DNA from: Proteromonas lacertae | Lineage: Eukaryota | Direction: 5' to 3' | Length of the DNA: 40,087 bases | NCBI GenBank assembly: GCA_002245135.1 | Contig: NGBS01001162.1 | Span: 310,001 to 350,087 of the forward strand | In this document: positions 14,500-33,600 of the stretch, piece by piece | How positions within the stretch are numbered: position 1 is the stretch's first letter | How the letters are laid out: each line of letters starts with the position of its first letter | Position numbers and translations under genes: made by a program | Notes under the pieces: model-generated | What the model was told of the DNA's origin: nothing | The model's database searches: none | What the model saw: the letters and a program-made list of their open reading frames with translations, nothing else

Positions 14500-15115
14500 C
14501 GCGCGATAAAGAAATTTGCTCGGTAAAGGAAGTAAGAAATTTCCATTAAAGTGAATATGTTAATACTTATTTGGAAGGCCGAGTAAATATAAATACAACA
14601 TCATTTTGTCTAATTTACTAAATATATTGAAATAATACTCAAATTTTCTATGATATTTATATCATCTATTATTAATCTTTATAACTATTTTATAATTGGA
14701 ATTGCTAGAGTATATTAGCATTTATGTCTCATTAACATATTGATGCATATATAGTGCCCTTTAAAAAAATATAGAAGAAAAAAGAAAATAAGGTCAAGCC
14801 TTCATCAAGCCAATATTTTATTTTTTATTTTAAATCATCGTAACACCGATTTTGTTTTATCTTATCATCAAAGAATTAATAACTCCATTCTCTTCCAGTG
14901 ATATATGCAATAAAAATAATGTTATATGATAGAAATAAGGAAGATGAATATGAAGTGAATATTTGTTAATAATTAAAGATAACTATTGTTCATGAATGTT
15001 TTAAGACAAAATGATTATATATTCATACATTACATGATGACATTAACAATAGTATTATATTAGATCTAAATATAAACAATTACTTCCTTTACCAAGCAAA
15101 TTTCTTTGTCGCGCG
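14500..15115. mobile_element. Degenerate palindromic element D (616 bp)
   Basis: 36-bp terminal inverted repeats at 14500-14535 and 15080-15115 with 2 mismatches. Internal inverted match ATCATTTTGTCT/AGACAAAATGAT. Central core CAAGCCTTCATCAAGCC at 14795-14811. Confidence 0.75.
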
Positions 15116-15117
15116 AC

Positions 15118-15450
15118 AGGACTGGAGCATTTAGCATTGAATAAAAGTGTATAACCAGATCCTTCAATCAACATTTTAACCTGGTCTGAATGATGGATAT
15201 TTACATTGTCCATAAAAAAGCAGAATTTACCCTTTGATTTTAGAGCATCTAATAAGTATTTCAAGTATGTTGTAAATACCTCAATACTATTTGGTCCGTA
15301 AATGGTATCACACCTATGAAAACCTAAATTAATCATAGTAGCTATAATTGTAATATCTGTAGCACCTCTAGCCATATGAACGATTGGTGTTGTTCCTTCG
15401 TCAGACCTTGCACATCCATTGACAACTCCCATACTCCAATGGGTTTCATC
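15118..15450 (-). pseudogene. IS630/Tc1/mariner (DDE_3) transposase fragment
   Basis: DETHWS...FFMDNVNIHHS...LLFNAKCSSP contains the first and second catalytic Asp. The sequence is cut by element D just before the expected SPxLNPIE Glu. Confidence 0.85.
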
Positions 15451-15659
15451 TTAGTTGTTGTGTGTTGTTCCCCTTTTACTTCCTTGAAATAATTCTTAAT
15501 AGGCTGTCTGTTATGCATAACAAACTTTGAAGGATTGAATGCAATAATATGATAAGTAACATTGGATGGATTATCACAATTAGGTTCAGCTTGGTTGCAA
15601 TACCCTTTAATGGTATAATACTGAACATCCTTATCATCTAAGGTGATGTAATTCTCGTT

Positions 15660-16282
15660 TGTTGTTCCCCGTATGTCTGAACTCTATATTGCAGAATGAT
15701 TCAATCAAAACTAATATGATATTCATGATGTTCGGAGTTAGTTATTAACAAATATATAGTTAGTTTGTCATATGACCTACATCTGTGATATACTTATTTA
15801 TGAACTTCATTATTATCAATATTAAACTAATTTTTGTATATTTTCAATTTTAATGTATCAGTGACTACTACAGGACTAAAATACATTATCTGATATAAAT
15901 AGAATTCATTATTTTTAATGTTAAGGCGGTTAAAAAATAAAAAAGAAAAAAGAAGTTCAAGCCTCACTCAAGCCTGCTCTTTAGTTTCCTTTTTTATTAC
16001 CTTAACATTAAAATTAATGTATTCTATTTATATCAGATAATGTATTTTAGACTGTAGTAGTTACTGATACATTAAAATTGAAAATATACAAAAATTAGTT
16101 TAATATTGATAATAATGAAGTTCATAAATAAGTATATCACAGATGTAGGTCATATGACAAACTAACTATATATTTGTTAATAACTAACTCCGAACATCAT
16201 GAATATCATATTAGTTTTGATTGAATCATTCTGCAATATAGAGTTCCGCCATACGGGGATTTCCGCCATACGGGGAACAACA
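15660..16282. mobile_element. Palindromic element A (623 bp, near-perfect ~270-bp arms)
   Basis: Ends TGTTGTTCCCCGTATG...CATACGGGGAACAACA. Arms are almost exactly reverse-complementary. Core CAAGCCTCACTCAAGCC at 15958-15974. 17-bp tandem duplication at 16244-16277. Confidence 0.9.
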
Positions 16283-16909
16283 GTTGTGCGCCGTTTGTCA
16301 TAGTTGGCCGTTTGTCTGCCAGACACTTTTAAAATAAACTAAATGTATATTCTTACTTGTCTTGATGAAAAATTGTTACTTTTACTTTTATACTTACTTT
16401 GTTATATGACCTACCTCTGCAGTATACTTTTTTGTTAATATAAATAGTTTGAATATTTGCGCCTTTTGTTTTCTAGAAATTATTGAAACAAACTAAATGC
16501 ATAATTAGCTAATATAGACTAAAATACATTAGATGAAATGATTAGAACAACTTAATGTTGATCACAAGACATTTAAAATTAAAAAAGAAAATATAGATTC
16601 AACCCTCCCTCATGCTTTCTTTTACATTTCTTTTTTTATATAGAAAGATTTAATAATTATTATATTCTAATTATTTTACCTAATGTATTTTAGTCTATAT
16701 TAAGCTAAATATACATTTAGTTTGTTTCAAAAAATTCTAGAAAACAAACAGGAGCAAATATTCAAACTATATATATTAACAAAAAAGTATACTGCAGAGG
16801 TAGGTCATATAACAAAGTAAGTATAAAAGTAACAATTTTTCATCAAGACAAGTAAGAATATACATTTAGTTTGTTTTAAAAGTGTCTGGTAGACAAACGG
16901 CGCGCAACA
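16283..16909. mobile_element. Palindromic element B (627 bp), directly abutting A
   Basis: Ends GTTGTGCGCCGTTTGTC...GACAAACGGCGCGCAACA with long reverse-complementary arms. Core variant CAACCCTCCCTCATGCT at 16600-16616. Confidence 0.88.
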
Positions 16910-16934
16910 CATGTAATAAACTTAAATAAATTAT

Positions 16935-17541
16935 CTATATTTCTTCCACATTTATTTTACAATGAACTGGATCTTCACCGTTTTTTAAATAACATTTGTA
17001 TTGATTACTACATTTGATATATATACATTTATTGTTATTTATAAACTGCAACACATAATTCTAGTAAGGCGCTGAAAAATTGAAATCTATTCCTTCTAAC
17101 TTTCCATCTTCATATAATCTCCTTACTTCGCTTGTGGCATCAGACGGTTGACTTATTTAAGTCATAAATTTAATGAAAAATGATAATGAAAATTATCAAG
17201 CGAAAAAGCTTGTTTGTTTTTCTTTGAAGAACTATTTCTCTTTTATAACTATATATTACTTCATAGTATGATTGTATTAATTATTATTATTAGCTGCATA
17301 TATCATTTTATAATCTTTTTTATATATGCAAGTTAATAGTGTCTTAAAATAGATTTTAACATTATATGGCTTGAAGTTTGACCGACCGAAGGTCAAGACA
17401 AAACAGAAAGGTTTTGACCGAACCTCTTCGGTTGACCGATAAATACAACACTGTGAAAATTTGCATAGGAATAATGAATGGAGTTATTCATGCAAAGAAC
17501 TATGATTAACGGCCAACTCTGACAAATAGCTCACAACAACA
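16935..17541 (-). mobile_element. Element E: a family-type terminus followed by a decayed ORF, possibly the 5' end of a coding element
   Basis: GGCCAACTCTGACAAATAGCTCACAACAACA ending at 17541 resembles the end of element C. Minus-strand frame 17165-16935 reads MT*ISQPSDATSEVRRLYEDGKLEGIDFNFSAPY*NYVLQF... with two premature stops. Confidence 0.5.
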
Positions 17542-17662
17542 TGTTACTATACATATTGTTGTGAGCTATCAAGTTTGAAATATTTATTAGAAATGTTAAA
17601 AACTATTCATATCAATTTTTTTATGATACTTTACATTCCAAAGAAATCTTATTTTATAATCG

Positions 17663-18698
17663 CTATTCTTTATTAAAGAATGTAATTATTTCATTTTTTA
17701 TATTTAATATTTTTTTCTTTTTAACTACATAGCTTAAATTGTATTTTCTATCTAACAACAACCCAGATTTTAAAACAGCAGTTAAACCAAATGTACTTCT
17801 TGATATTATAAGAAAACTACTTCTTGAAAGTATTTCATGTTCTATAATTATAGTAGTGTCATTTTAATGCTTCGCATAATGGTTTGTGATATTTTTGGAA
17901 TAAATAAATATGTTTTTATAAATGTTACTTAATTTAATCTTTAATTCTTTTGAATCTCCTGTTAAAAACCATTTACTTTTATAAAAATACTTAAACGCAA
18001 TCTTAATCATTGTATTTATTTCATTGTTATTTATTATTTGTTTTTCTTTCAGATCTGCATTTCCAACTCTCATTTGAATTCCAATAAAAGGCTTATTTGT
18101 TAGAATAGATAAATACTTATCTATTTTCTTTTCTATAGGTTTATTTATAATCAGCATTTTTGAAAATATTATATAGTATAAATAGAATGCATTCCATAAA
18201 TAATCAGCTCTTTTGTTTAATAATATGTACTTCTTTATATTTTTATAAAAATATATATCATTAGCTATACCAGTTGTTATGTCACACCATATGTAACTAA
18301 AGTATTTAATTTTCTTTTCAATACGTATGCTCTTTAGATTATTGATATTAAAAGGACATATACAAAATTGTGTTAGTTTTTCAATTTTAGTAGTTGTGAT
18401 ATTGTATTGAGGGAAATGATAGAATAAATCAAACTCATTCCAATTTAATACTAAATAGAAATAATAATGTTGCAATACAGTAAGGCTTTGACTGAAAATA
18501 GAATGACAATATAATTATTCCTGCAAATGACATTAATCTATTACCAAGTCCAGCAATAATATTTACATTCACTTCAGTTTGTGATGTTTTATACATTTTT
18601 ACTATGTTCTGTAAATTAATATTTGTATTTTTGTTATGTAATATAATTAAAATCAGAAAATTAAAACATAAAATAAGAAGTATAAATAATGTTTCCAT
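17663..18698 (-). pseudogene. Fucosyltransferase-like (GT11/GT23/NodZ fold) gene with an in-frame TAA
   Basis: TM anchor, AGLGNRLM, intron 18451-18478, IGIQMRVG and WFLTGDS. TAA at 17864-17866 is followed by 66 more open codons with EILSRSSFLIISRSTFGLTA, ending at TAG 17663. Confidence 0.75.
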
Positions 18699-18791
18699 AA
18701 GAATAATATACTAATATATATATTTTAAGTATTTGTATATATATATCTATAAAACGCAATCTAAATCGATAAATGATAAAAAGAAAAGTAT

Positions 18792-19940
18792 ATGTTTCAT
18801 TTATCTATTTTTATTGTATATATATTTATATCTTGTATATTATTATTAAAGAAAGTATATACATTATTTGAAGTGAGTTATACATGTAATCATCAGTGTT
18901 TATCAAAAATAGATAAAGATGTTTATATATACTATGCAAATATTAATAAAAAGCAGAATGAATTAATACTAATTGGAGTATCATTTCCGTATCACAGAAG
19001 AAATTATAAATGCAAGATTATTTATCAGAACTTTATTTCTTTATGTAACATCAGTTATAAACATAAATATAATATTAACAAGATAATGAATTTATCATAT
19101 ATATCGATACATCTATCACTAAGAACTATAAACAAAACTCCTATAGGGGTGTTTATAAATAATAAATATTTGCCGTTGATAATATATAAGCCTAATAGAT
19201 ATTACGATATTATTTTAGTAATAGTAAATTTTCATAATATTAGAAATTATAAGCAAGTTATTGATGTAATTGAAATATCGATAATCTATGGAGTAGATCA
19301 TATTGTTATGTATGTGACATCATCAACATTATTTATTAAATCTATATTGTATAATTATGTAAAAAGTGGATATATTGAATTACTACCATTCTGTTTTAAT
19401 AAAGAAATAAAATATGTTCATGAAACAGGACAAGTAGAAAAAATTAATGATGCATTATACAGATATATGTATAATACAAAATATATAATATTTCATGATA
19501 TTGATGAAGTTATCATACCTATCACGATAAAGGATTATTTAAAGTTTATAAAATATGTAGATAATAATACAAGTGATATGTATCTATTTAAATCCAAATT
19601 ATTTTCATATGAATCTAAGGAATACAATTCTATAATAACGTATAAAGATTGTTGTTTTGTAAAAAATGGCTATGAAAAATACATAGTTGGCAATCTGTAC
19701 AAATATTCTATGCTTGATGTTCATATATATAAGGAATCTGTTCTACCTATAAAAATAAGATCTATAAATAAAAACTATGGATATGTTAGACATACTAGAT
19801 TCAAAGGTAAAATGTGTAATAAGCATTTAATTGATAATTCCTTAGATTATTTAGAAAAGCATTTGAAAAAAATATATAGAAAATTCGAAAAAATGTTTAA
19901 ACATAATGAAAAATTGTACTATTATGGTAAGAAATCTTGA
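18792..19940 (+). CDS. Glycosyltransferase family 92 / DUF23
   Basis: Signal anchor, YGVDHIVMY, GQVEKINDALY, DIDE and GYVRHTR. Paralog of 3137-4387. Confidence 0.8.
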   Translation: MFHLSIFIVYIFISCILLLKKVYTLFEVSYTCNHQCLSKIDKDVYIYYANINKKQNELILIGVSFPYHRRNYKCKIIYQNFISLCNISYKHKYNINKIMNLSYISIHLSLRTINKTPIGVFINNKYLPLIIYKPNRYYDIILVIVNFHNIRNYKQVIDVIEISIIYGVDHIVMYVTSSTLFIKSILYNYVKSGYIELLPFCFNKEIKYVHETGQVEKINDALYRYMYNTKYIIFHDIDEVIIPITIKDYLKFIKYVDNNTSDMYLFKSKLFSYESKEYNSIITYKDCCFVKNGYEKYIVGNLYKYSMLDVHIYKESVLPIKIRSINKNYGYVRHTRFKGKMCNKHLIDNSLDYLEKHLKKIYRKFEKMFKHNEKLYYYGKKS

Positions 19941-19976
19941 TTTTGGTAATGCTTGTGTGAGTTATTTATACTTAAT

Positions 19977-20858
19977 ATGATTAATATTTTTCTTTATTTA
20001 TTAAGCATTTTAATTTTTTATCATTATTTTATTCAACTGGAAAGAATAAATAAAAAAAATGGCAAAACATTTATGTATGAATATTTATTTGTTACTTCGT
20101 TTTATGTAGGTAAATCTAAATATACAACAGAAAAATATAAAATGTGGATAAATAATTTCTCCGTTTTAGTAAAGCGCAACTTGTACATATTTTGTAATAT
20201 AGAAGGATATAAACTCATAAATCCAAAGTTGAAAAAGTTTGTTAGAGTTATAAATGATGTATTTGACTTAAGAAAAATAAATGACTATAAGTTTTCATAT
20301 AAAAATATGTGGAAGTATGATCCAGAAAAAAAGAGGCATAATTATAGATTGTATGCTATATGGAATGGAAAAATTAGTATGCTAAAATATGTATCTGAAC
20401 ATCTTAATAGTAAAATATATATGTGGATTGACATTGGTTGTTACAGAGAAAATAAATACTATTTCAATTTTCCATCACTTAAACAAATACATTTTTTGCA
20501 GAATATAACACAAAATTCGTATATGTTTTTCTTTCAATTGTATGACTTCCCTAATATACATAGTAACAATATTACATTAATTACCAAAAACTGCATTGAA
20601 GGAGGAACATTTGGTGGTTCACAATTAGGGATAAGTAATTATTATTATACATTTTTTTCGTTACATGATAAATTTTATAGAGAGAAATATTTTGTGGGAA
20701 AAGATCAAACATTGTACAATACAATTGCATATTACAATTTAAGCAAAGTTGCTTTATTAAGATATAAATCACATAGTTGTAATGATAATATATGGTTTAG
20801 ATTCTTAGATTTTTACGCTGGTTCATATTGTGCTAATGTTAACGTTATTTACATTTAA
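19977..20858 (+). CDS. HtrL/YibB-like putative glycosyltransferase
   Basis: ATG at 19977, TM anchor, and motifs IWNGK, MWIDIGCYR, GGTFGG and FVGKDQ. Confidence 0.7.
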   Translation: MINIFLYLLSILIFYHYFIQLERINKKNGKTFMYEYLFVTSFYVGKSKYTTEKYKMWINNFSVLVKRNLYIFCNIEGYKLINPKLKKFVRVINDVFDLRKINDYKFSYKNMWKYDPEKKRHNYRLYAIWNGKISMLKYVSEHLNSKIYMWIDIGCYRENKYYFNFPSLKQIHFLQNITQNSYMFFFQLYDFPNIHSNNITLITKNCIEGGTFGGSQLGISNYYYTFFSLHDKFYREKYFVGKDQTLYNTIAYYNLSKVALLRYKSHSCNDNIWFRFLDFYAGSYCANVNVIYI

Positions 20859-20908
20859 ATAATTAAGCAAATATTAGTAAAATTAATAGAAATTTTCAAT
20901 CATTTATA

Positions 20909-21661
20909 TTGTTATTTGAAATTATATTTATCTATAATTTATATTATAATAGTTTAAATACATGTAGCATATCTTTAATAATTCCAGCTACATATTCAAC
21001 TTATCAAGCATGTAAAATTAGAATAATGAGAATGATTCTTAAATCTTCTATGTTACCTTATGAAGTTATTATTGTTATTAGTGAAAATAATTATTCATAT
21101 TTTAGAAAATCCAAAATAAAAGGGAAATTATTATTATTATACTATATGGCTGGAAAACATAATCAAGCAGAAAATAGAAATGCAGGTATAAAATTAGCAA
21201 AATGTCAATATATATCTTTATTTGATTCAGATGATTATATGTCCAAATACAGAATAGAAATAATTTATAATATATTTAAAAGAAATAGAAACATAGATTT
21301 GTTATTGCATTCATATACAAACAATATGAAGTTAATATATGATAAAAAGAGCATAAATTATAACATAGATCAAATGTTATATAATTATACTCCTACTGAT
21401 ATATATAATTCATATTATAGAAATATAAAATCACCTATTCATGCTAAATATTGTTGCAATTTCTTAAACAAAAGGTTGAATATCCAAAATGCATGGCTGT
21501 CAGGAAAAACAAATCTGCTGAAGAGTTATTATTACAATGAGTCTTGGGAGTATTATAGATTAGAAGATACAGAATTGAACTACAGATTAATTATGAATAG
21601 ATATAATTTAGCTTTGATAAAATATAATTTAGGTGTATATATTTCAAAATATAAATGTTGA
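20909..21661 (+). CDS. Glycosyltransferase family 2; start codon unresolved
   Basis: Motifs SISLIIPA, PYEVIIV, NRNAGIKLAKCQYISLFDSDD and ED. No in-frame ATG precedes the domain. Confidence 0.8.
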   Translation: MLFEIIFIYNLYYNSLNTCSISLIIPATYSTYQACKIRIMRMILKSSMLPYEVIIVISENNYSYFRKSKIKGKLLLLYYMAGKHNQAENRNAGIKLAKCQYISLFDSDDYMSKYRIEIIYNIFKRNRNIDLLLHSYTNNMKLIYDKKSINYNIDQMLYNYTPTDIYNSYYRNIKSPIHAKYCCNFLNKRLNIQNAWLSGKTNLLKSYYYNESWEYYRLEDTELNYRLIMNRYNLALIKYNLGVYISKYKC

Positions 21662-21722
21662 ATGATTATTATAAGCGAAAATAATAAGTAACAAAATATA
21701 AATAATGGTAAATAGTTAGTAT

Positions 21723-22709
21723 ATGATAGTATATTTATATATATATTTACTGATACTATTTATCTATGTTAATATTTATATAGAGTATAAACTAAAAAGG
21801 AAATGTAATTTGACTATGGTATTTCCTTTCAATAGCAAAGATGGTCCAGGTAATTTAGCATACTATATTAATGAATCTATAATCGATTGGAATAATTCTG
21901 AATATGGTAAATATTGTAATATATCATTTGTGAAACATATATCATTTTTGAATGTAAAATATTTTAGCAGAATGAATACATATGTATGGTTTCAATCACT
22001 TTTGTATCCTATAAATAGCGATTTTAATTATAATAAAATAATTTATGGCCCTAATGTATCACCTATAAAATATTTATATTTTCCTTTAAATAATACACAT
22101 GAAATGATGTGGATACATATAATTAATAAAATAAAATACTATATAGTTCATCATTATAGAGTAGCTTATCATCTCATGAATAGAACCAACTCTTTTTTTC
22201 AATATAAAAAGTATTTAACATTTCCATGTTGCATAAAATATTCATATGAAAAAAATATAATAAAAAAATGGGATGAAAGAAGATATGACTTTGTAATATA
22301 TGAAAAATATGTTGATCGTAACCATAAAAACGATGGCAAAATTCTTATTCATTCACTAAAAGAATTATTCAAAGTAAGTGTTTTTAAGTATGGATCATAT
22401 CAAAGAAATGATCTATTAAAATATAGTAGAGATTCAAAAATTGTAATATACTATTCATTTTATGATACTGGAGCTCTAGCATTAATCGAAATGCAAAGGA
22501 TGGGTGTATATACTGTAGCTTTGCAAAGTGAGTTTGTAACAAAAGTTAATGGAGTATTTTTGCCAGAATTGGAAAGTAATATTACATTAGCTGTTAAAAA
22601 ATTAAAAGAAATAATTAAATTAAAGCATGATTCACATTATTTATCAGAATATAACAGGAAGAGATATGATTGCAAAAAATATTTATATAATATTATTAAA
22701 AAATTATAG
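21723..22709 (+). CDS. Putative GT-B (GT4-like) glycosyltransferase, type II membrane
   Basis: TM anchor, GPGNL, YGPN and C-terminal SFYDTGALALIEMQRMGV, resembling the GT-B nucleotide-sugar-binding helix. Confidence 0.5.
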   Translation: MIVYLYIYLLILFIYVNIYIEYKLKRKCNLTMVFPFNSKDGPGNLAYYINESIIDWNNSEYGKYCNISFVKHISFLNVKYFSRMNTYVWFQSLLYPINSDFNYNKIIYGPNVSPIKYLYFPLNNTHEMMWIHIINKIKYYIVHHYRVAYHLMNRTNSFFQYKKYLTFPCCIKYSYEKNIIKKWDERRYDFVIYEKYVDRNHKNDGKILIHSLKELFKVSVFKYGSYQRNDLLKYSRDSKIVIYYSFYDTGALALIEMQRMGVYTVALQSEFVTKVNGVFLPELESNITLAVKKLKEIIKLKHDSHYLSEYNRKRYDCKKYLYNIIKKL

Positions 22710-22722
22710 TTAACTTTAAGTA

Positions 22723-23759
22723 ATGTTTTTTATTTCTGTTATATTTTGTAGCATGATAATATCATTCCATATACTTTTTGTAACTTTATATTTTTATATT
22801 TTGGTTATATTATTTAATGATTATTATTCTTTAATGTATATATATATTCAACCCAATATTGGATATTATCCAAATAATGGAACTGGCTTATTTACCAAAC
22901 TTATAGGTTTAGGTTCTGTTATTGGATTATGTATAATCAGAAAAAGAGGACTAATATGTAATTTTTATAGCATATATATATAGTATATAGATGGAATTCG
23001 TTTCATGATTACTTTCATATAAATTACAAACACAAATATATCGGTCAAATGTATAATACATCAAATAAAATGATTGTCAAATTAAACAGTTCTATGACCA
23101 AAGAAAGTTTACTTAATAATTTAATTATCTATTCATATTCATATAATCTAATTATTGTTGATCCTGGTAATATAATTTTGTATTTAAATGAAAAATATAA
23201 TACTATTCTGAAAAATAGAATAAGGTGCGAATATCATTCTAATGATTATTTTTTTCATTACTTTTTTCGTAAAGTATTAACATTTTCATCACACATACTT
23301 CATAGATTTACCAATTACAAAGTATTTCATTTTATTAACCAAAATAATTTGACTACAGTAGGAGTTCATATAAGATTAGGAAAATTTGGTGATTTTCATG
23401 AAAAAAAAGCAACATATTTTGCTAATTCTAAATCAGTATCACAATTTAATTATACAATTATTGAATTAATAAAGAATTATAATGTTCAGTATGTAATTTT
23501 ATCATCTGATTCATCTTATATAACCAAGAATAAAAATAACAAATTAATTATTATAAGGAATATATTAAAATCTAAGAATATAAAACACTCAAACAATTGG
23601 TATTTTAAACCAATTAATAATGATTCAGTAGAATGCCTATTAGAAATTTATATGTTAAAAATGGCAAAATACTTGGTACTAACTAAGAACAGTGCATTTA
23701 GTAAAGTAGCATATTATATGAACAATAATTGTAATGCAAATAAATGTATTTTTATTTAG
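22723..23759 (+). CDS. Fucosyltransferase-like (GT11/GT23 fold)
   Basis: Intron 22958-22983 joins ORFs 22723 and 23049 in frame. Motifs TGLFTKL, VGVHIRLG, ILSSDS and LVLTKNSAFSKVA. Confidence 0.75.
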
Positions 23760-24826
23760 TAATAGTTACAATGTTGAAAGTTTTTCCCTACAAATAAGAT
23801 ATTTTTATATTCACATCTACTAAAATAAGAAGCAAATAATGAGAAAGTGCTTCCTCTAGTTAGTATAAGGAAATTAGCATTTTTCATAATCATTATATCA
23901 ATCATTGATTGATTTATGCATACTATATTTCTACTATGACAAGGAAGATTGTTATCAGTGTAAATATGATTTCCTAACTTTTTCTTCATTTCAATTTTAT
24001 TAACTAATGAATCTGACAATAATACATTTTTTGTATAATTTGATTTTTTTAATAACATCACTAAATAATCAATATCTGCTTTATTTAAATATTTTTGAAA
24101 TGGTTGATTATCAACATCACCAATTCTCAAATGAATAGCATTGTATTTATCATTCATTGAAAAAAGGTAAATCTTAGTAAAATAGTTTCTTATTATGTTT
24201 GTGAATGAAGAAGATATTTTAAAATAATAATTACAAATTATTTTATTTATCATTCTAATATTAACACTTATGCTTCTGTCTACTTTATTAAGTAAACCTT
24301 TATTTTTTATTAAATTGTTATATCTATTACTTTTTAATATATGCTCTGTAGAATACCAATGTTTATTAGCTCCAATAAGATTTAATTTAGATTCTAATGC
24401 TAAAATTCCATCAGAAAAATAAGCCATATTATCAAATGTGATGTTATAATATTTAATAGGGAAATTGAAATAATACCATAACATTTTCCATGATACTAAA
24501 ATATAAAAAGATTGATATAATAGATAATACTAAATAGCGATCTGTTTGATATTAATGATACAAATATTGAGCTTACAGCTTGTAGTAACGAATTTCCTAA
24601 ACCCTAAAGTTGAAGAGATTATAATAAATATTACTCCTAATTTAATATTATCAAAAAATGCAAATCCAACTTTGGATTGATAATATGCTTGTGTTATTAA
24701 TGCTTGATTTTTGATATGATATAATAAAATATTACGAGTATTACTTAATTCATATCTATATAAATTGTATACACATATTATGTATAAAAATAATATAAAT
24801 AAAAACCAAATCACCTTAGTTTTCAT
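23756..24826 (-). CDS. Fucosyltransferase-like (GT11/GT23 fold)
   Basis: Introns 24604-24634 and 24496-24530 give GGLGNSLLQAVSS...ISWKMLW. Motifs AIHLRIGD, LLSDS and LILTRGSTFSLFA. Confidence 0.8.
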
Positions 24827-24895
24827 TAATTATTATTGTAGACTGTACATAAATTTATGTTGTTAAGATGAATAACAATTTTATGATATAAAAAA

Positions 24896-25861
24896 ATGAT
24901 CATAAAAAGATTAAGTATATATATTCTTACTATATATATTTTATATACAATGATTCTTTATTGTTATTTTAATGATATTACTTTCATTCCTATAAAAATA
25001 AAAGAAAACAATTTATCACATTTATTTTTGGAATCAATAAAGAATTATAATCAGATTATTCATCATATAAACAAGTTATATATGAAGGTAAAAAATTTAG
25101 AAGGTAAAAGAAAAGCAGTAATTGTTCTATTGAATTATAAAGAAATAAAGCCATTTATAAATAGAAATTATTTATTTTTAAAACAGAACTACCATGATAA
25201 GTTACTATTTTATGTTACAGAAAATAAATCTCTTGTAGAACAATTCAAAAATATTCAATATAATGTAATTGATGTTTCAGATATATTTTTTTCTTTTCCA
25301 TTTAAATTTAATAAATCATATTACATTTCTACTTATAGAAAAAGAGGGAAATGGAATTATCAACATATGTGCAGATTCTTCTTTAGAGATATTTTTTTAC
25401 ACCCGTCACTTTTTGATGTTGATTTATGTATGAGACTTGATTCTGAATCATTATTAAATACATCTGTTAACTTATTCGACTATATGATAGAAAAAAGAGT
25501 ATATATGCACAACAGAATATTTAATGATGCTGATTTTGTTGTAAAAGAACTAAAAAACTACACTATATCTTTAGTGAAAGGATTAAATATAAAAGTAAAA
25601 GATAAATCAAGATATGATTTAACTTTTAAAAATACTGTTTTATCATATTATAATAATTTTGAAATTTGTAGAATGAATTTTTTTAGAAGTAAAGAAATTT
25701 TTCAATTTACAAATTTGGTTGATTTAAGTTATGGACAATTTCTTTATAGATGGGGAGATGCTCCTCTTAGATACATTAGTTTATCGTTGTTTGCAGAGCA
25801 TAATTCAAAAATATCTCTACCTAGAAACATACAATATTGTCATAAAGATTGTCCAAAGTAA
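24896..25861 (+). CDS. GT15 alpha-1,2-mannosyltransferase-like (KRE2/MNT1 family)
   Basis: Motifs YQHMCRFF, MRLDS, YNNFEI and YRWGDAP, with a TM anchor. Confidence 0.9.
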   Translation: MIIKRLSIYILTIYILYTMILYCYFNDITFIPIKIKENNLSHLFLESIKNYNQIIHHINKLYMKVKNLEGKRKAVIVLLNYKEIKPFINRNYLFLKQNYHDKLLFYVTENKSLVEQFKNIQYNVIDVSDIFFSFPFKFNKSYYISTYRKRGKWNYQHMCRFFFRDIFLHPSLFDVDLCMRLDSESLLNTSVNLFDYMIEKRVYMHNRIFNDADFVVKELKNYTISLVKGLNIKVKDKSRYDLTFKNTVLSYYNNFEICRMNFFRSKEIFQFTNLVDLSYGQFLYRWGDAPLRYISLSLFAEHNSKISLPRNIQYCHKDCPK

Positions 25862-26279
25862 TTAATTTATAGAGAGTGTTTTGCTCAGTGATTATTTCTC
25901 CTTATCATTACCACAATATTTTAGTTAATAAGAAGTAATATATAGAAACACAAGCTGCATAATAAATTATATAATAAAGGTCGATTTAAGTCATTGATCG
26001 ATGAAGATATAAATATAACCTATTGGTTTTTGACCGTTCTATACAACCTTACTAATATTCATAGATTAATAATATATATAGATAGATAATTCTATGAATT
26101 ATATAAAATTGAGAAGAAAAACATTGTAATATACTATTCTATCATTCCTTAAAATAGTCATTATAATTTGATTCATTTAAATGATGTTCTATATTATCAA
26201 TATATCCTAATTTTGTATAATTAATTTTAAACTTCTTTATAGTTATGCAATTATAGAAATAATCTCCTTTCTTTTGTTC

Positions 26280-27061
26280 CTATAGAATAAATATTTTTAA
26301 TACAATTGTCATTTTATGTTTCTCTAATTCTGTTATACTTAGATGTATAGCTTTTATTAAGAAAGTAGCATCTATAGCATTATCATTCTTTTTCTTTAAT
26401 ACTAATGCTAGTATTATATTATCATATCTTACTCTACCAACAACTATATTATTTAGTATTATCTTATCTTTATATGAAAATGTATATTGAGTAAATATAA
26501 AATAATCTATACCACATCCTGGATGAAGCCTTGATCTTTTCCAAATTGAATCATGATTAATAGTGCTGAATATATTTCTCCAATAAATATCTCCTCTTTT
26601 ACCTACTATTAGTAATTGTTTATTGTAAATTCTTTTATCTGATGCAATTATATTAATTAATTTATATATATTTTGATGAAAAAGAATATCTGAATTAAAA
26701 TATACAATTACTTTACAATTAGTAATAGTTATTGTTTCAACAATCATAGGATAAAAGTAAGGAGTACCAAAGCTGTTATTTCTATATATACTAAATTATT
26801 AAAATATAGATACTTTGAGTATTTAAAATATTTGCATTTCCTACATGAAATATTATACACTGCTATATTGCTTTGATAGTATATTGCTACAACACCATTT
26901 CTTTTGATATTATTATTTAAATTATAAATGACAATATTAAATATATCATGATTAAAATACTTTAACGGAGGTAATGTTGTTATGAATGAATAGTCTAATT
27001 TTTGGAATTGTTTATTACATAAAAAAATTGTTCTAATTATATTACTTATAAAAATAATCAA
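26280..27061 (-). CDS. Uncharacterised GT-A-like protein, possibly a pseudogene
   Basis: An intron from donor 26813 to acceptor 26791 or 26782 joins the two ORFs. Motifs NSFGTP, YFNSDIL, GIDYFIF and VGRVRYDN. No in-frame ATG, and the 3' end may be frameshifted. Confidence 0.55.
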
Positions 27062-27130
27062 AAATATAGATAAATTATTTATTATTTTATTGTTACAAAT
27101 GGAAATGTGGATTGAACTAACAATCGATAA

Positions 27131-27880
27131 ATGTGTCTTAATATGAATAAAAATCTATCTGAATATATTGCACTTATATTCTTAATGTTCGATTGTATTA
27201 TTTATCTTTATAATAGATCTTACAAAAATTGCTTCAATATTGCTCATGGATGTGGATTGCTTAATAATATTACATATACAAATGCTTTAGAAGCTTTTTA
27301 TCATTCTTATGCTAAAGGTTATAGACATATAGAAATTGATTTACAAACTACAAAGGATGGTCATATTGTAGGAGCTCATGACTGGATGAGATTTAGATAT
27401 TTAACTAACTCTAGTTATAATGAAAGCATGAATTATGAATTTATAAAAAGAGGAAAAATTTTAAATAAATATCACATAATATATGATAGTATGATATTTG
27501 AGCTATTAAATAGATTTAAAGATATTACTATATTTACTGATAAAATTACAAATTATTTAATATTAAAGAAATACACTAAAATAATTAATAGATTGTATGT
27601 AGAAGTATTTACATATCACCAATACAACTATTCAAAGACTCTTGGATTTACTAATGTTATGCTAAATATAAATTCAGGAATAGATTTAATTCGCTTTTAC
27701 AAATTAAAATATAATTCAATAACAGCTATAACTATAGGACCATCTTTATTTTATTCACATAAAGACTTATTGCAGAAATTATTCAGAAAAAATATAAGAA
27801 TATTTGTCTTCTTAGTAAACAATGTTTCAGCTATTAAATCTTCGTTTTGCAAATATGTTAATGGATTTTACATTGATTAA
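27131..27880 (+). CDS. Glycerophosphodiester phosphodiesterase (GDPD) family protein, bacterial type with N-terminal anchor
   Basis: IAHGCG...YTNALEAF...IEIDLQTTKDGHIVGAHDW and C-terminal GFYID. Confidence 0.88.
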   Translation: MCLNMNKNLSEYIALIFLMFDCIIYLYNRSYKNCFNIAHGCGLLNNITYTNALEAFYHSYAKGYRHIEIDLQTTKDGHIVGAHDWMRFRYLTNSSYNESMNYEFIKRGKILNKYHIIYDSMIFELLNRFKDITIFTDKITNYLILKKYTKIINRLYVEVFTYHQYNYSKTLGFTNVMLNINSGIDLIRFYKLKYNSITAITIGPSLFYSHKDLLQKLFRKNIRIFVFLVNNVSAIKSSFCKYVNGFYID

Positions 27881-28015
27881 TATTCTTAACAACATAATCT
27901 TAATAATAACCACTACTTTCAGAATAATTATTATGAAAATGAATTAAAATAAGTTTGAAAAAATACAAAGAAATGAAGATAATACTTATATATCCTATTA
28001 CATGTGAATGAGATT

Positions 28016-28023
28016 AACAAACA
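28016..28023 (-). promoter_or_regulatory. TGTTTGTT motif downstream of the DUF229 stop (Blastocystis-type polyadenylation element)
   Basis: Exact TGTTTGTT about 40 nt after the stop. Variants TGTTTGTA at 1623-1630 after MFAP1 and TGTTTGTG at the end of tetraspanin 3. Confidence 0.45.
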
Positions 28024-28064
28024 AAACTCATTTTTGATTTAACTGATAATTATTATATTTTATC

Positions 28065-29677
28065 TTATTGATGTATTTTTATGCTTGTTGGAAATTCCAT
28101 ACATTGTTTTGATATTAGTTCTGCATCATAGTTATCATTATCAAGTTCTTTTTTTCCAACTCTGCATGAACAACCAAATTTTACTCCTTGATTTGCACAA
28201 TTTCTTTTGCTAGATATTCTCTCAAACAAACTAGTACCTTCATATATCTTATTAGTTTTTTTTCTCTATAGATTAATTAATGTATATACATTCCCTAAAT
28301 GAGCTAAGTCTATCAATGTTTTATGAATATCAAATGCTGTAATGAATTTATTTTGATTAGCAAGCAAATTTCTTTTAATTATTTTATTTGTTTCTGTAAA
28401 TGACTTGGGCAATATCTAAAATATTAATTTTAATGCTAATAGAATACTAAGAATAGAAGAGGAAGTGAGTGATCAAGCTTGCCAAACTAAATGATTTAGA
28501 ATTACATAATATATACTTCGGTATTATAATAATCGCCATATTGAATTCCATGATCTGCTGTTATAACAATTACGCTTTTCTTCATTATTCCGTTATCATT
28601 TAAATATTTTATGTACTTGTAGAAATCATTATCAAGCCTTGGAACAGATTTTAAATTTTTATCATGTGAATCCATAAATAACAATTTTGAAAATACAGGT
28701 TGTTTTTTTGAATGATAATATTTTAAAGCCTGTTTAAGATAATTAAAATAATGCTTATGAATCTGTTTTTCTCCCAAACAACGTGTTTTACTAGAAAATA
28801 TATATTTAATGTAAGTAGAATCACAAGCAGGTGGATTTAAATTATGATCTGAACCAGTATAATTATTATTTAAATAGAATTTTTCTGTTACATCACATAC
28901 TAAATGAGCATTTATTGTTATATATTTTTCTTCTTCAAAATCTTGAAATAATATTCTGTGTATGGAATCATTTCTTTCTGATGTATTATATCTATATCCA
29001 TAGAATAAAGCAGCAAAATGTGAAAAGGAATTATAATCAATTGAATGATATTTTAGCATATCAAACATGCTATACAAATGTTTTATGCTTTTTAAATATT
29101 TTATAGTTTTTAATAATTGATGCTTTAATACAAATCTTGATCCTCCGTCAAACATTATAAAATGAACTGATAACTTAGTTCCATATCTTTTTAATTTTAT
29201 TTGACGTGGTATAAAGTGAAAGAACCATTGTGATTTGCTATTTCTGCTGTTATTATTAAGTTCTGATATTTCTATTATTTCTGATTCTATATTGGCTTTT
29301 TCACCCATCTAATAGGTTTAAATATAGTGTAATACTTTTAAATTCTTTAAATACATGTAATATTTTTTGTTTTTTACTTGGTGCTGTTTTACAATTATAT
29401 TTGAATATGCTAATATTGTGTTGTTTATTATTGAAATAGAATAAGTAACATTAGGACATAATACATTTTTTTGACTAGAAGTAATATGAAATCTATTCAT
29501 TGCTTTGCATGGTAACTGACATGAATCATTAGTTGTATCATATTCAACATCATTTAAAAAGCTGCTGCATAAACTTGTACTATTATATCTTCTCTTAGTT
29601 ATAGTTTTATACTTTCTGTTAATCAATATTAAAAAAACAAATAAAATTAACACTAAGAATAGATACATATAATTCAT
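28065..29677 (-). CDS. DUF229 / alkaline-phosphatase-superfamily membrane protein
   Basis: ATG at 29677, intron 29309-29335 and three further small introns at about 28270-28515. Motifs MFDGGSR, ITADHG, ITAFDIHKTL, GTSLF and RNC...CSC. TAA at 28065. Confidence 0.8.
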
Positions 29678-29745: not shown

Positions 29746-30256
29746 TGTTGTTGTGCTCCGTTTGTCATAGTTGACCGTTTGTCTACCACACACTTTTAAA
29801 ACAAACTAAAAGTATATTCTTACTTGTCTTGATGAAAAATTGTTACTTTTATACTTACTTTGTCATATAACCTATGTCTGCAATATACTTTTTTGATAAC
29901 TTTAGTAGTGTATATATGAAACACATTATTCTAATTTTTAATTTTAATGTTTCATTCGCTACTAGAGACTAAAATACATTAACTGAAATGATTAGAATAC
30001 TTAAATTTTAATTTGAAGACCCTAAATGTCTTTTAGTCTTTAGTAGTGATTGAAACATTAAAATAAAAAATTAGAATAATGTGTTTCATATATACACTAC
30101 TAAAGTTATCAAAAAAGTATATTGCAGACATAGGTTATATGACAAAGTAAGTATAAAAGTAACAATTTTTCATCAAGACAAGTAAGAATATACTTTTAGT
30201 TTGTCTTAAAAGTGTCTGGTAGACAAAAGGCCAACTCTGACAAACGGCGCACAACA
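29746..30256. mobile_element. Palindromic element C (511 bp, B-like, core deleted), flanked by TA
   Basis: TA|TGTTGTTGTGCTCCGTTTGTC...GACAAACGGCGCACAACA|TA with ~230-bp inverted arms. The outer ~140 bp are nearly identical to element B. Confidence 0.9.
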
Positions 30257-30565
30257 TATATTATTATATAATTGATGTGTTATTAGTTTCAAATTATAAT
30301 AATAATTAATGAGTTTGAATTAGAAAATGAAATAATTAAAGAGTATTTATGTGTAATTATTAAAGCCACTATTCTTCTATAATATTTTCATTCATAAATG
30401 ACATATGTTTTACATTTGAAATATTACACTATTTACTATATAGAAAAATAATCTAATCACTAGAATGATATAAAATTTGTATTATATTATATAGCATTTA
30501 GTATTAAACGGATAGTTATTTAGTATTGAATATTATATAAATTCTTTTATATTTTAATAATTTAG

Positions 30566-31076
30566 TATATATAGAAATAACAGCTTTGGTACTCCTTACT
30601 TTTATCCTATGATTGTTGAAACAATAACTATTACTAATTGTAAAGTAATTGTATATTTTAATTCAGATATTCTTTTTCATCAAAATATATATAAATTAAT
30701 TAATATAATTGCATCAGATAAAAGAATTTACAATAAACAATTACTAATAGTAGGTAAAAGAGGAGATATTTATTGGAGAAATATATTCAGCACTATTAAT
30801 CATGATTCAATTTGGAAAAGATCAAGGCTTCATCCAGGATGTGGTATAGATTATTTTATATTTACTCAATATACATTTTCATATAAAGATAAGATAATAC
30901 TAAATAATATAGTTGTTGGTAGAGTAAGATATGATAATATAATACTAGCATTAGTATTAAAGAAAAAGAATGATAATGCTATAGATGCTACTTTCTTAAT
31001 AAAAGCTATACATCTAAGTATAACAGAATTAGAGAAACATAAAATGACAATTGTATTAAAAATATTTATTCTATAG
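30566..31076 (+). pseudogene. 5'-truncated duplicate of the GT-A-like gene (second exon only)
   Basis: Identical 155-aa ORF. The duplication breakpoint lies inside the gene's intron. Confidence 0.7.
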
Positions 31077-31494
31077 GAACAAAAGAAAGGAGATTATTTC
31101 TATAATTGCATAACTATAAAGAAGTTTAAAATTAATTATACAAAATTAGGATATATTGATAATATAGAACATCATTTAAATGAATCAAATTATAATGACT
31201 ATTTTAAGGAATGATAGAATAGTATATTACAATGTTTTTCTTCTCAATTTTATATAATTCATAGAATTATCTATCTATATATATTATTAATCTATGAATA
31301 TTAGTAAGGTTGTATAGAACGGTCAAAAACCAATAGGTTATATTTATATCTTCATCGATCAATGACTTAAATCGACCTTTATTATATAATTTATTATGCA
31401 GCTTGTGTTTCTATATATTACTTCTTATTAACTAAAATATTGTGGTAATGATAAGGAGAAATAATCACTGAGCAAAACACTCTCTATAAATTAA

Positions 31495-32460
31495 TTACTT
31501 TGGACAATCTTTATGACAATATTGTATGTTTCTAGGTAGAGATATTTTTGAATTATGCTCTGCAAACAACGATAAACTAATGTATCTAAGAGGAGCATCT
31601 CCCCATCTATAAAGAAATTGTCCATAACTTAAATCAACCAAATTTGTAAATTGAAAAATTTCTTTACTTCTAAAAAAATTCATTCTACAAATTTCAAAAT
31701 TATTATAATATGATAAAACAGTATTTTTAAAAGTTAAATCATATCTTGATTTATCTTTTACTTTTATATTTAATCCTTTCACTAAAGATATAGTGTAGTT
31801 TTTTAGTTCTTTTACAACAAAATCAGCATCATTAAATATTCTGTTGTGCATATATACTCTTTTTTCTATCATATAGTCGAATAAGTTAACAGATGTATTT
31901 AATAATGATTCAGAATCAAGTCTCATACATAAATCAACATCAAAAAGTGACGGGTGTAAAAAAATATCTCTAAAGAAGAATCTGCACATATGTTGATAAT
32001 TCCATTTCCCTCTTTTTCTATAAGTAGAAATGTAATATGATTTATTAAATTTAAATGGAAAAGAAAAAAATATATCTGAAACATCAATTACATTATATTG
32101 AATATTTTTGAATTGTTCTACAAGAGATTTATTTTCTGTAACATAAAATAGTAACTTATCATGGTAGTTCTGTTTTAAAAATAAATAATTTCTATTTATA
32201 AATGGCTTTATTTCTTTATAATTCAATAGAACAATTACTGCTTTTCTTTTACCTTCTAAATTTTTTACCTTCATATATAACTTGTTTATATGATGAATAA
32301 TCTGATTATAATTCTTTATTGATTCCAAAAATAAATGTGATAAATTGTTTTCTTTTATTTTTATAGGAATGAAAGTAATATCATTAAAATAACAATAAAG
32401 AATCATTGTATATAAAATATATATAGTAAGAATATATATACTTAATCTTTTTATGATCAT
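31495..32460 (-). CDS. Duplicate GT15 mannosyltransferase-like gene
   Basis: Protein identical to 24896-25861. Confidence 0.85.
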   Translation of the reverse strand: MIIKRLSIYILTIYILYTMILYCYFNDITFIPIKIKENNLSHLFLESIKNYNQIIHHINKLYMKVKNLEGKRKAVIVLLNYKEIKPFINRNYLFLKQNYHDKLLFYVTENKSLVEQFKNIQYNVIDVSDIFFSFPFKFNKSYYISTYRKRGKWNYQHMCRFFFRDIFLHPSLFDVDLCMRLDSESLLNTSVNLFDYMIEKRVYMHNRIFNDADFVVKELKNYTISLVKGLNIKVKDKSRYDLTFKNTVLSYYNNFEICRMNFFRSKEIFQFTNLVDLSYGQFLYRWGDAPLRYISLSLFAEHNSKISLPRNIQYCHKDCPK

Positions 32461-32529
32461 TTTTTTATATCATAAAATTGTTATTCATCTTAACAACATA
32501 AATTTATGTACAGTCTACAATAATAATTA

Positions 32530-33600
32530 ATGAAAACTAAGGTGATTTGGTTTTTATTTATATTATTTTTATACATAATATGTGTATACAATTTATATAG
32601 ATATGAATTAAGTAATACTCGTAATATTTTATTATATCATATCAAAAATCAAGCATTAATAACACAAGCATATTATCAATCCAAAGTTGGATTTGCATTT
32701 TTTGATAATATTAAATTAGGAGTAATATTTATTATAATCTCTTCAACTTTAGGGTTTAGGAAATTCGTTACTACAAGCTGTAAGCTCAATATTTGTATCA
32801 TTAATATCAAACAGATCGCTATTTAGTATTATCTATTATATCAATCTTTTTATATTTTAGTATCATGGAAAATGTTATGGTATTATTTCAATTTCCCTAT
32901 TAAATATTATAACATCACATTTGATAATATGGCTTATTTTTCTGATGGAATTTTAGCATTAGAATCTAAATTAAATCTTATTGGAGCTAATAAACATTGG
33001 TATTCTACAGAGCATATATTAAAAAGTAATAGATATAACAATTTAATAAAAAATAAAGGTTTACTTAATAAAGTAGACAGAAGCATAAGTGTTAATATTA
33101 GAATGATAAATAAAATAATTTGTAATTATTATTTTAAAATATCTTCTTCATTCACAAACATAATAAGAAACTATTTTACTAAGATTTACCTTTTTTCAAT
33201 GAATGATAAATACAATGCTATTCATTTGAGAATTGGTGATGTTGATAATCAACCATTTCAAAAATATTTAAATAAAGCAGATATTGATTATTTAGTGATG
33301 TTATTAAAAAAATCAAATTATACAAAAAATGTATTATTGTCAGATTCATTAGTTAATAAAATTGAAATGAAGAAAAAGTTAGGAAATCATATTTACACTG
33401 ATAACAATCTTCCTTGTCATAGTAGAAATATAGTATGCATAAATCAATCAATGATTGATATAATGATTATGAAAAATGCTAATTTCCTTATACTAACTAG
33501 AGGAAGCACTTTCTCATTATTTGCTTCTTATTTTAGTAGATGTGAATATAAAAATATCTTATTTGTAGGGAAAAACTTTCAACATTGTAACTATTACTAA
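32530..33600 (+). CDS. Duplicate fucosyltransferase-like gene
   Basis: Mirror of 23756-24826, with introns 32722-32752 and 32826-32860. Confidence 0.75.

Follow-up and report, generated by a model that had tools for sequence, protein, structure and literature searches.

Eleven consecutive, mostly glycan-related genes between transposable elements in the genome of Proteromonas lacertae

Blastocystis and its relatives bear a thick carbohydrate coat whose synthesis is poorly known. The Blastocystis ST1 genome paper lists the coat sugars, including fucose, and its CAZyme table is without GT92, GT15 or fucosyltransferase entries (PMC5608401). A sequence-only reading of a 40,087-nucleotide stretch of P. 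lacertae contig NGBS01001162.1 (the window) proposed that 11 consecutive genes within it form an island resembling a bacterial capsule locus. Is this block such a locus, how did it come about, and what might it contribute to the cell surface?

Gene content of the block

The block (positions 17663 to 29677) consists of 11 genes in a row, here g1 to g11, and an ORF scan found no further gene-sized ORF inside it, which bears out the claim that no housekeeping gene intervenes. As described earlier, five genes (g2 to g6) lie in tandem on the plus strand (18792 to 23759) with gaps of 36, 8, 61 and 13 nt. Across the block, gaps are 8 to 93 nt in 5 of the 10 intervals, genes overlap in two others, and no transposon lies between them. 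About nine glycan-related families had been proposed; evidence was obtained for 10 of the 11 genes and eight of the nine families (five genes, GT92, GT2, GT15, GDPD and DUF229, are above the curated Pfam cut-off), but the “GT-A-like” assignment of g9 was unsupported. Since eight unrelated families are represented, the block is not a tandem array; non-homologous genes are adjacent, as in eukaryotic biosynthetic gene clusters. Even if 20% of all genes were glycan related, 1e-4 runs of 11 would be expected per 7,000 genes. In Blastocystis ST1, the 125 catalogued glycosyltransferases (GTs) are unclustered, with a maximum of 3 in 12 tags versus 2.99 at random.

Three genes are fucosyltransferase-like (GT23/GT37-type GT-B): g1 (17663 to 18698, minus strand, one 28-nt intron), g6 (22723 to 23759, plus strand, one 26-nt intron), recognized by motifs and profile, and g7 (23756 to 24826, minus strand, three exons, introns of 31 and 35 nt), recognized by relatives and profile. 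They are only 18 to 27% identical to one another, and all have an intron of phase 1 close to a shared, conserved tryptophan. Three GDP-fucose-binding motifs in the GT-B C-terminal domain align with FUT8 (E = 0.01), and the seven best PDB matches of a 23-sequence profile are all FUT8 (E = 0.010 to 0.013). Curated cut-offs favor no single CAZy family: O-FucT is matched by 5 of the 23 members (best, 1.7e-4) and NodZ by 1. Thirteen relatives of g7 were found at 52 to 58% identity, the 14 g7-type sequences being mostly 55 to 65% alike pairwise, a star-like spread; alignment against viral contigs gave no relative. A single g7 intron of 66 or 81 nt was rejected because two introns restore a conserved N-terminal motif. 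In g1, an in-frame stop at 17864 to 17866, common to both copies of the inverted repeat described below, lies ahead of the third motif, which is thus beyond the stop. The frame is open across this site in the orthologues P0152 and P0154 (41 to 47%), and an 87-nt intron skipping the stop would delete sequence conserved in them. g1 is likely a null allele.

Among the remaining genes, g2 (18792 to 19940, plus strand) encodes an N-anchored GT92 enzyme with a DxD motif (Pfam PF01697, 1.8e-20; 74 bits, cut-off 23). g3 (19977 to 20858, plus strand) encodes an N-anchored HtrL/YibB-like GT-A protein according to its relatives and predicted structure (pLDDT 84, GT-A fold matches, a conserved acidic motif). 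It has no direct Pfam match to HtrL_YibB (PF09612) and is tied to it only via relatives (E = 6e-19 and below), of which there are seven at 27 to 67% identity, one carrying HtrL_YibB; in the tree it groups with anchored forms, apart from anchorless ones (SH-aLRT 91). g4 (20867 to 21661, plus strand) is a GT2 gene (PF00535, 2.4e-9; 37.8 bits, cut-off 23.3). g5 (21723 to 22709, plus strand) represents an unnamed family of N-anchored, GT4-like GT-B enzymes, indicated by 50 relatives that differ strongly in amino acid composition and by a predicted structure (pLDDT 93) with GT-B matches at E = 1e-7; its match to Pfam Glycos_transf_1 (7.7e-4, 19.5 bits) is below the 26.4-bit cut-off, and no sequence match was found in PDB. 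The fold matches of g3 and g5 (TM 0.42 to 0.60, 9 to 15% identity) indicate fold, not sugar specificity. g8 (24896 to 25861, plus strand) is a GT15 (KRE2/KTR-type) gene (PF01793, 1.4e-11, above cut-off), that matches Kre2/Ktr4 (Ktr4, 4.2e-10). g10 (27131 to 27880, plus strand) encodes an N-anchored GDPD-family phosphodiesterase (Pfam, 5.9e-10; PDB GDPD, 0.003); a weak match of this domain to AvrBs2 was disregarded. g11 (28065 to 29677, minus strand) encodes an N-anchored DUF229 protein of the alkaline phosphatase/sulfatase superfamily (Pfam, 7.4e-21) in five exons with four phase-0 introns of 24 to 32 nt, and has weak additional matches to Pfam Sulfatase and sulfatase/phosphonate hydrolase. 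The family of the two-exon gene g9 (26280 to 27154, minus strand; modelled from ORFs and an intron) is unconfirmed: no profile or sequence match was found in the collections searched, including Pfam, NCBIfam, PHROG and viral contigs. Its likeness to GT-A is confined to a motif, and a weak match to EcoRI methylase was disregarded.

N-terminal anchors, claimed for every gene, were found in nine, where an ATG is followed by a hydrophobic stretch, but not in g4 and g9. g4 has no hydrophobic window above threshold, and a start search found no in-frame ATG upstream of its anchor; the only source of an ATG is a start within the 3′ end of g3 combined with a GTT-donor intron. g9 has a hydrophobic N-terminal stretch with no in-frame ATG ahead of it. 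Lesions therefore concern 3 of the 11 genes (g1 broken, g4 and g9 with doubtful starts). Premature stops amount to 1 in 3,620 codons in DNA of 21 to 25% GC, and catalytic motifs are kept, which suggests that selection was active until recently. Overall, the families point to a heterogeneous cluster of probable secretory-pathway glycan enzymes and fit a putative product that is fucosylated, acetylated and possibly phospho-decorated, as first proposed.

Neighboring genes, repeats and composition

The OafA-type O-acyltransferase that had been placed across the repeat nest from the block is an intact single ORF (11965 to 13776, plus strand) with AT3 and SGNH domains (Pfam Acyl_transf_3, 4.3e-18; SGNH, 2.3e-5; PHROG O-antigen acetylase, 2e-64), and its plasmid relatives are only about 31 to 32% identical. 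The block adjoins ordinary genes, e.g., MFAP1, TenA and BPL_N; tetraspanins and a large surface-type protein are encoded near it but not inside it. A tree of one gene points to a relationship of the host with Blastocystis and Proteromonas (SH-aLRT 84). Two of about 10 genes in the supposedly ordinary region at 1 to 12 kb are of glycan type, a GT92 gene at 3.1 kb (29% identical to g2) and a DUF3405-like gene. The sequence-only reading had missed these, as well as the stop codon in g1, the doubtful starts of g4 and g9, and the facing terminal repeats and the inverted copy described next.

A nest of Tc1/IS630-type elements (13806 to 17538; repeats and Pfam DDE_3) contains palindromic MITE-like elements at 15666 to 16259 and 16307 to 16901, terminal repeats at 16282, 16909 and 17538, and a broken DDE transposase at 15055 to 15450 (DDE_3, 4.4e-9). 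On the other side of the block, a palindromic MITE at 29749 to 30256 (232-nt arms, 95%), delimited by terminal repeats, shares their family with 16282 to 17538. Terminal repeats of this family at 16282 and 30256 face each other around the block, the left one being embedded in the nest.

An inverted copy of 17263 to 26808 occupies 30548 to 40087 (minus strand), reaching the window end, with 99.8% identity over 9,550 columns. The two copies differ in 18 columns, 14 of them gaps (11 events) and 4 substitutions, all in the distal part, and the 5.7 kb adjoining the junction are without any difference; in the inverted copy, g5 to g8 are identical, g1 to g4 are frameshifted, and g9 is present as its 3′ exon only. 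The copy is either a recent duplication or an assembly artefact. A chimera from assembly or amplification, with no second genomic copy, is a serious possibility, to which we give somewhat less than even weight: beyond the difference-free stretch there are mostly single-base gaps increasing towards the window end, every frame-breaking difference falls in the second copy, and the sequence at the junction is AT rich, resembles an intron and has short homology. Conversely, this is no plain fold-back, since the arms are kept apart by 3.7 kb of unique sequence and the hairpin MITE does not coincide with the turn, and long inverted repeats are known from the analogous region of Ostreococcus.

The block is indeed richer in I, N, K and Y, as noted earlier (0.414 versus 0.279 in seven non-glycan flanking ORFs), but this is not specific to the place: the GT92 gene at 3.1 kb, outside the block, reaches 0.409, and the bias therefore marks gene class. 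Total GC is 0.20 to 0.25 in the block versus 0.25 to 0.32 at 1 to 12 kb, a difference confined to codon positions 1 and 2 (GC12, 0.248 versus 0.361 in the flank), with equal GC3 in block and flanking genes (0.164 versus 0.165). Nine introns of 24 to 35 nt were modelled in the block, and candidates in the flanks are 23 to 36 nt. By introns and GC3, the block genes are host type, and their amino acid bias is consequently no sign of recent transfer. Recent horizontal transfer as the cause of the composition was rejected in view of equal GC3, and bacterial contamination in view of introns and eukaryotic neighbors.

Function of the block and competing explanations

The reading we prefer, with about even confidence, is that this transposon-bracketed, fast-evolving, intron-bearing block is a Golgi cassette whose enzymes jointly attach and trim side groups of surface-coat glycans. 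It starts from the observed gene order, families of 10 of the 11 genes, introns, composition, flanking repeats and lesions. From general knowledge of the families, the GT92, GT2, GT15, GT4-like and HtrL-like enzymes would extend sugar chains, GT23/GT37-type enzymes would transfer fucose from GDP-fucose, DUF229 and GDPD proteins would attach or strip phospho-substituents, and the neighboring OafA-type enzyme would O-acetylate, with donor sugars and their transporters supplied from elsewhere in the genome. Genes at the locus may be born and lost through duplication, transposon-linked rearrangement and nonsense mutation, probably under pressure by viruses, gut microbes or the host; as has been suggested for the Ostreococcus outlier chromosome, this turnover would alter the coat.

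Possibly, although we consider it unlikely, the block is a transposon-rich sink for decaying paralogues of expanded glycan-related families, whose enzymes, if active at all, work singly without a shared pathway or regulation. Proteromonas has 48 GT92, 20 DUF229, 14 GT15 and 11 FUT8-like genes genome-wide (published counts give no GT15 or AT3 in all eight Blastocystis genomes and no GDPD in P. lacertae). Because these families are expanded genome-wide and glycan-related genes also occur outside the block, it could be a dump of paralogues; the lesions, the adjoining nest and the drift towards AT-rich codons evident in GC12 agree with this. Other expanded families would then be expected inside, yet the tetraspanins and the large surface-type protein stay outside, and the 10 glycan enzymes of 11 genes are tightly packed with no transposon among them.

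A bolder and more doubtful extension of the Golgi cassette reading is a serotype system of gut Opalinata, in which transposon-bounded, divergent cassettes of Golgi enzymes would be duplicated, inactivated or swapped among strains or lineages, switching the coat. Transposition of the block as one composite transposon by its outer Tc1-type repeats (16282 and 30256), within the genome and perhaps also from one lineage of gut protists to another, is improbable. Repeats of one family do face each other around it, the right-hand MITE and the start of the inverted copy are 290 nt apart, members of the g5 family differ widely in amino acid composition, and g3, g5 and g7 have relatives at 52 to 67% in AT-rich assemblies, a collection in which the housekeeping gene MFAP1 has none above 53%. 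However, MITEs accumulate in any relaxed region, no terminal repeat marks either end of the inverted copy, the transposase gene nearby is broken, GC3 is that of the host, and the lack of closer MFAP1 relatives may stem from the search or the assembly. Uptake of a whole bacterial capsule or O-antigen locus or giant-virus glycosylation cluster is very improbable: in several of nine metagenome or viral loci scanned, HtrL-like genes have GT11, GT2 and GT4-type genes as neighbors, the best viral fold match of g5 is a Yasminevirus GT (TM 0.66, 18%), and OafA-type genes are typical of bacteria, but membrane anchors, spliceosomal introns (including the shared phase-1 intron of the fucosyltransferases), host-like GC3, mixed gene orientation, the grouping of g3 with anchored forms, viral and bacterial relatives just 24 to 32% alike, a second island family in 0 of 33 loci (one weak GT2 match apart) and the commonness of GT15, GT92 and DUF229 in eukaryotes count against it.

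Comparison with known systems

In bacteria, the variable loci for capsule, O-antigen and LOS outer core likewise hold GTs of several families together with genes for acetylases, HtrL-like proteins and fucosyltransferases in a single block, and to this extent the capsule-locus analogy stands. However, no polymerase, flippase or ABC export genes (including wzx and wzy) were found among 34 ORFs (Pfam) or 16 ORFs (NCBIfam), and no genes for nucleotide-sugar synthesis or transport were found in the block by either collection; it is therefore not a capsule locus proper, and it also differs by its introns, signal anchors and lack of operon orientation. In giant-virus glycosylation groups, HtrL_YibB similarly stands beside GT11, GT2 and GT4-type genes, but these are mostly anchorless, intron free, 18 to 32% identical and set among viral core genes, and there are no viral genes in this window.

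The fungal galactosaminogalactan cluster is conserved, its synthase, epimerase and deacetylase serving one polymer. Its five genes in Aspergillus and Metarhizium are likewise unrelated eukaryotic genes for one surface polysaccharide (PMC8224951); the block differs in its many type II anchored transferases, lack of a synthase and fast turnover. Such clusters had been called rare in eukaryotes, but this one and Ostreococcus chromosome 19 are precedents (PMC8224951, PMC5082852).

By analogy, the closest counterpart appears to be the GT-rich outlier chromosome of Ostreococcus. Chromosome 19 of O. tauri carries grouped GTs from several families (GT92 among them) together with a long inverted repeat, transposon genes such as a DDE endonuclease, and fast-evolving, lineage-specific genes, and a role in surface glycans has been proposed (PMC5082852, PMC5498103). 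Grouped mixed GTs, transposon genes and a long inverted repeat are common to both, the last likeness resting on a copy that may be an assembly artefact. Lower GC, a trait of chromosome 19, holds for the block at codon positions 1 and 2 only. In contrast, chromosome 19 is an entire chromosome of ∼300 kb on which the GTs form small groups set among numerous other genes, it has sugar-phosphate transporters and epimerases, neither of which is in the block, and its variability and link to virus resistance have been demonstrated, whereas the block is a 12-kb run of 11 genes in an ordinary chromosome of a different lineage, with GC3 equal to that of its flanks. With its ten enzymes, the block provides named candidates and makes coat diversity testable at a defined locus; it also adds three unnamed enzyme families with many relatives (anchored HtrL-like, GT4-like and FUT8-like). 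If its versions differ among strains at one site, a protist would possess a bacterial-style serotype locus; if they do not, the block still shows that surface-glycan genes came to be grouped with transposons outside green algae and fungi.

Gene content of the island

The island at 17663-29677 is filled by eleven genes (g1 to g11), consecutive as the sequence-only reading had it and with nothing else of gene size between them; successive intergenic gaps from g1 to g11 are 93, 36, 8, 61, 13, −4, 69, 418, −24, and 184 nt. The families assigned in that reading stood for all but g9, which had no match in any family, sequence, or profile search. Five genes pass Pfam cut-offs: g2 (GT92), g4 (GT2), g8 (GT15, also matching Ktr4/Kre2), g10 (GDPD, also matching GDPDs of solved structure), and g11 (DUF229, with weak matches to sulfatases and one phosphonate hydrolase). 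There was no direct Pfam match for g3, which was placed by relatives and fold: seven relatives among 278 candidates range in identity from 67% down to 27%, the last carrying HtrL_YibB, and its predicted model (8 sequences; pLDDT 84) resembles GT-A enzymes (best E value, 2.4e-4; TM, 0.35 to 0.46). Similarly, g5 has 50 relatives and a predicted model (29 sequences; pLDDT 93) resembling GT4-type GT-B enzymes (E value, 1e-7; TM up to 0.60).

The products of g1, g6, and g7 share 18 to 27% pairwise likeness, and their alignment, used as a query, retrieved 20 relatives. The first 7 of 14 PDB matches to the 23-row profile were FUT8 (E values, 0.010 to 0.013), and a plant fucosyltransferase matched at 0.55 to 0.67; these values are weak, and it is the three known fucosyltransferase motifs, brought into register by the alignment, that support a fucosyltransferase-like identity. 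Each of the three genes has a phase-1 intron 2 to 3 codons upstream of the same tryptophan, an intron that their relatives appear to share, as the called proteins start at it or read through it. The nine modelled introns of the island are 24 to 35 nt long.

N-terminal anchors had been proposed for every gene, and an ATG followed by a hydrophobic stretch begins 9 of the 11; in g4 and g9 the anchor is not preceded by an ATG in frame, and these two can be rescued only via a start within the adjoining gene and an additional intron. An in-frame stop interrupts g1 at 17864-17866 in both copies of an inverted repeat. This gene is likely a recent null, because its orthologues P0152 and P0154 are open at that position and continue into the third motif. 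That 3,620 codons of such AT-rich DNA contain a single premature stop suggests that most island genes were under selection until recently.

The run of 11 exceeds chance. Among 7,000 genes, 1e-4 such runs are expected if glyco-genes make up 20% of all genes, approximately the share seen on the left side of the window itself (∼10 genes, 2 of them glyco-genes), and 0.18 if they make up 40%. In Blastocystis ST1, 125 locus-tagged GT entries (PMC5608401, supplement 28; one untagged row omitted) showed no clustering, assuming that gene order follows locus-tag order (adjacent pairs, 1 observed versus 2.3 expected; maximum within 12 tags, 3 versus 2.99), in a table that would overlook divergent genes such as g3 and g5. 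We consider the chances evenly balanced that the block is a functional coat-decorating cassette; that it is an unlinked sink of glyco-genes seems rather unlikely.

Mobile elements and the inverted copy

Nested palindromic elements, along with a DDE transposase that is broken, occupy 13.8 to 17.5 kb. One terminal repeat is present at 16282, 16909, and 17538, and a MITE (29749-30256) has it at each end, so that the same repeat brackets the block on its left and right. We judge it improbable that the block is a mobile cassette. Additional inverted-repeat pairs, one with 36-nt arms around a transposase fragment (14500-15115) and one of a second terminal-repeat type (15660-16282), reveal at least two nested element families.

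The segment 17263-26808 recurs inverted at 40087-30548 with 99.8% identity. Of the 18 differing columns, 14 are gaps and all lie in the distal part, leaving 5.7 kb without any difference, which suggests that the differences are read errors near a contig end and that the copies are effectively identical. We lean towards a very recent duplication, with a chimera a serious though lesser prospect. At the duplication junction, 62 nt (30498-30559) resemble the second exon and intron of g7 (81%) and may be what is left of a fourth gene of the fucosyltransferase type.

Composition, relatives, and origin

The reported enrichment in I, N, K, and Y is real (0.414 in the 11 island genes versus 0.279 in 7 non-glyco ORFs; P = 6e-5) but is linked to gene class. 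An intact, N-anchored second GT92 gene among ordinary genes (3137-4387, minus strand; 29% identity to g2) is as rich in these residues as g2. As to the GC and codon usage proposed as a check, GC at codon positions 1 and 2 is lower in the island (0.248 versus 0.361; P = 6e-5) and synonymous choice differs (P = 1e-9), but GC3 (0.164 versus 0.165) and 4-fold GC (0.099 versus 0.107; P = 0.66) are alike. Synonymous choice shows no clear difference from that of flanking glyco-genes (P = 0.08). The bias is thus no foreign signature but protein drift in a fast-evolving gene class.

The nearest relatives of g3, g5, and g7 are AT rich, as is the window. Fourteen g7-type sequences share 52 to 82% likeness, mostly 55 to 65%, indicating that many divergent versions exist. 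Island genes have relatives at 52 to 67% in the same collection where MFAP1 has none above 53%, a gap that could reflect interlineage exchange, a greater number of copies, or the limits of the search. The relatives of g5, P0157 to P0206, form an unnamed, N-anchored GT4-like family whose sequences differ widely in composition and which may represent a new CAZy family of gut protists; g5 itself falls in a clade of 25 rows that vary in composition, with outliers on long branches.

Distant HtrL relatives were found at 33 loci, 8 of them viral and 25 from metagenomes, for the most part at 24 to 32% identity, and often adjoin GT11, GT2, or GT4-type genes (62 ORFs at 9 loci scanned). On giant-virus-like contigs, HtrL_YibB lies beside GT11 and a pyruvyltransferase (L001:1877-5363), lies between GT11 and GT2 (L031:8244-10665), or forms a fusion with GT2 that has DNA polymerase B as its neighbour (L026:9299-10711), arrangements that support HtrL as a glycosyltransferase. 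Uptake of the island in one piece is very improbable: the 33 HtrL loci contain no other island family apart from one weak GT2 match, g3 clusters in a quick tree with anchored HtrL forms and apart from anchorless viral ones (SH-aLRT, 91), the best viral fold match of g5 has 18% identity, and the best plasmid matches of the OafA-type gene reach only ∼31 to 32%. Single families were possibly borrowed long ago.

Genomic setting and proposed function

Window GC is 20 to 32%, and the region from 0.2 to 12 kb has eukaryotic gene content (MFAP1, tetraspanin-like genes, TenA, and BPL_N) and GT-AG intron candidates of 23 to 36 nt. In a quick MFAP1 tree of 50 rows (the window protein and 49 of the 120 matches listed), the window protein groups with brown algae and further rows (SH-aLRT, 91), with P0027, whose cluster contains a Blastocystis protein of 40% identity to the window's, as sister (SH-aLRT, 84, not starred). 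The tetraspanin-like genes, divergent and rich in introns, number three or more within 8 kb (2365-3101, 8245-8990, and 9206-9990). The TenA/THI-4 gene lies at 4500-5096 (plus strand), and the stand-alone BPL_N gene lies at 11066-11950 (plus strand). The OafA-type O-acyltransferase gene placed across the repeat nest by the earlier reading is intact (11965-13776). One kilobase from it lies an ORF (10089-10967, minus strand) whose product has an N-anchor, matches DUF3405 weakly (2.7e-5), and is possibly another glycosyltransferase; the glyco-region may extend left as far as 10 kb. A protein of ∼1,000 residues (5155-8149, minus strand) has a signal-like start and a C-terminal membrane segment; its 882-aa part had no matches in Pfam and PHROG, and it is a possible surface protein and glycan acceptor.

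The sequence-only observation was largely right, with corrections, and its interpretation is plausible, its key claims being predictions. If the block is a coat-decorating cassette, its products would work in the Golgi as type II anchored enzymes that modify glycoconjugates in transit. Chains would be extended by the GT92, GT2, GT15, GT4-like, and HtrL-like enzymes and fucosylated by g6 and g7, with GDP-fucose the expected donor for g7. The DUF229 and GDPD proteins could add phospho-decoration or trim, and the OafA-type enzyme would O-acetylate.

In the literature covered, which included version 2 of PMC10690189, such a cluster is undescribed for Blastocystis or Proteromonas; version 1 of that article, which mentions glycosyltransferases and the surface coat, and the Proteromonas genome paper may each bear on its novelty. 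Supplement 7 of PMC10690189 lists InterPro counts for Proteromonas lacertae of 48 GT92, 20 DUF229, 14 GT15, 11 FUT8-like, 6 AT3, and 0 GDPD and, for eight Blastocystis genomes, 0 GT15, 0 AT3, 0 to 1 DUF229, and 1 to 17 GT92; it records BPL_N for Proteromonas and Blastocystis but not for Cafeteria. The window exactly matches neither set of counts in that supplement. We place the host, with fair confidence, in Opalinata as an AT-rich lineage related to both. Coat sugars reported for Blastocystis (PMC5608401) are mannose, glucose, GlcNAc, and fucose. Null alleles and turnover at the island may be adaptive, given the precedents of GT92 loss that can confer virus resistance in nematodes (PMC13105082) and of the GT-rich chromosome 19 of Ostreococcus, linked to virus resistance and strain variability (PMC5082852, PMC5498103).
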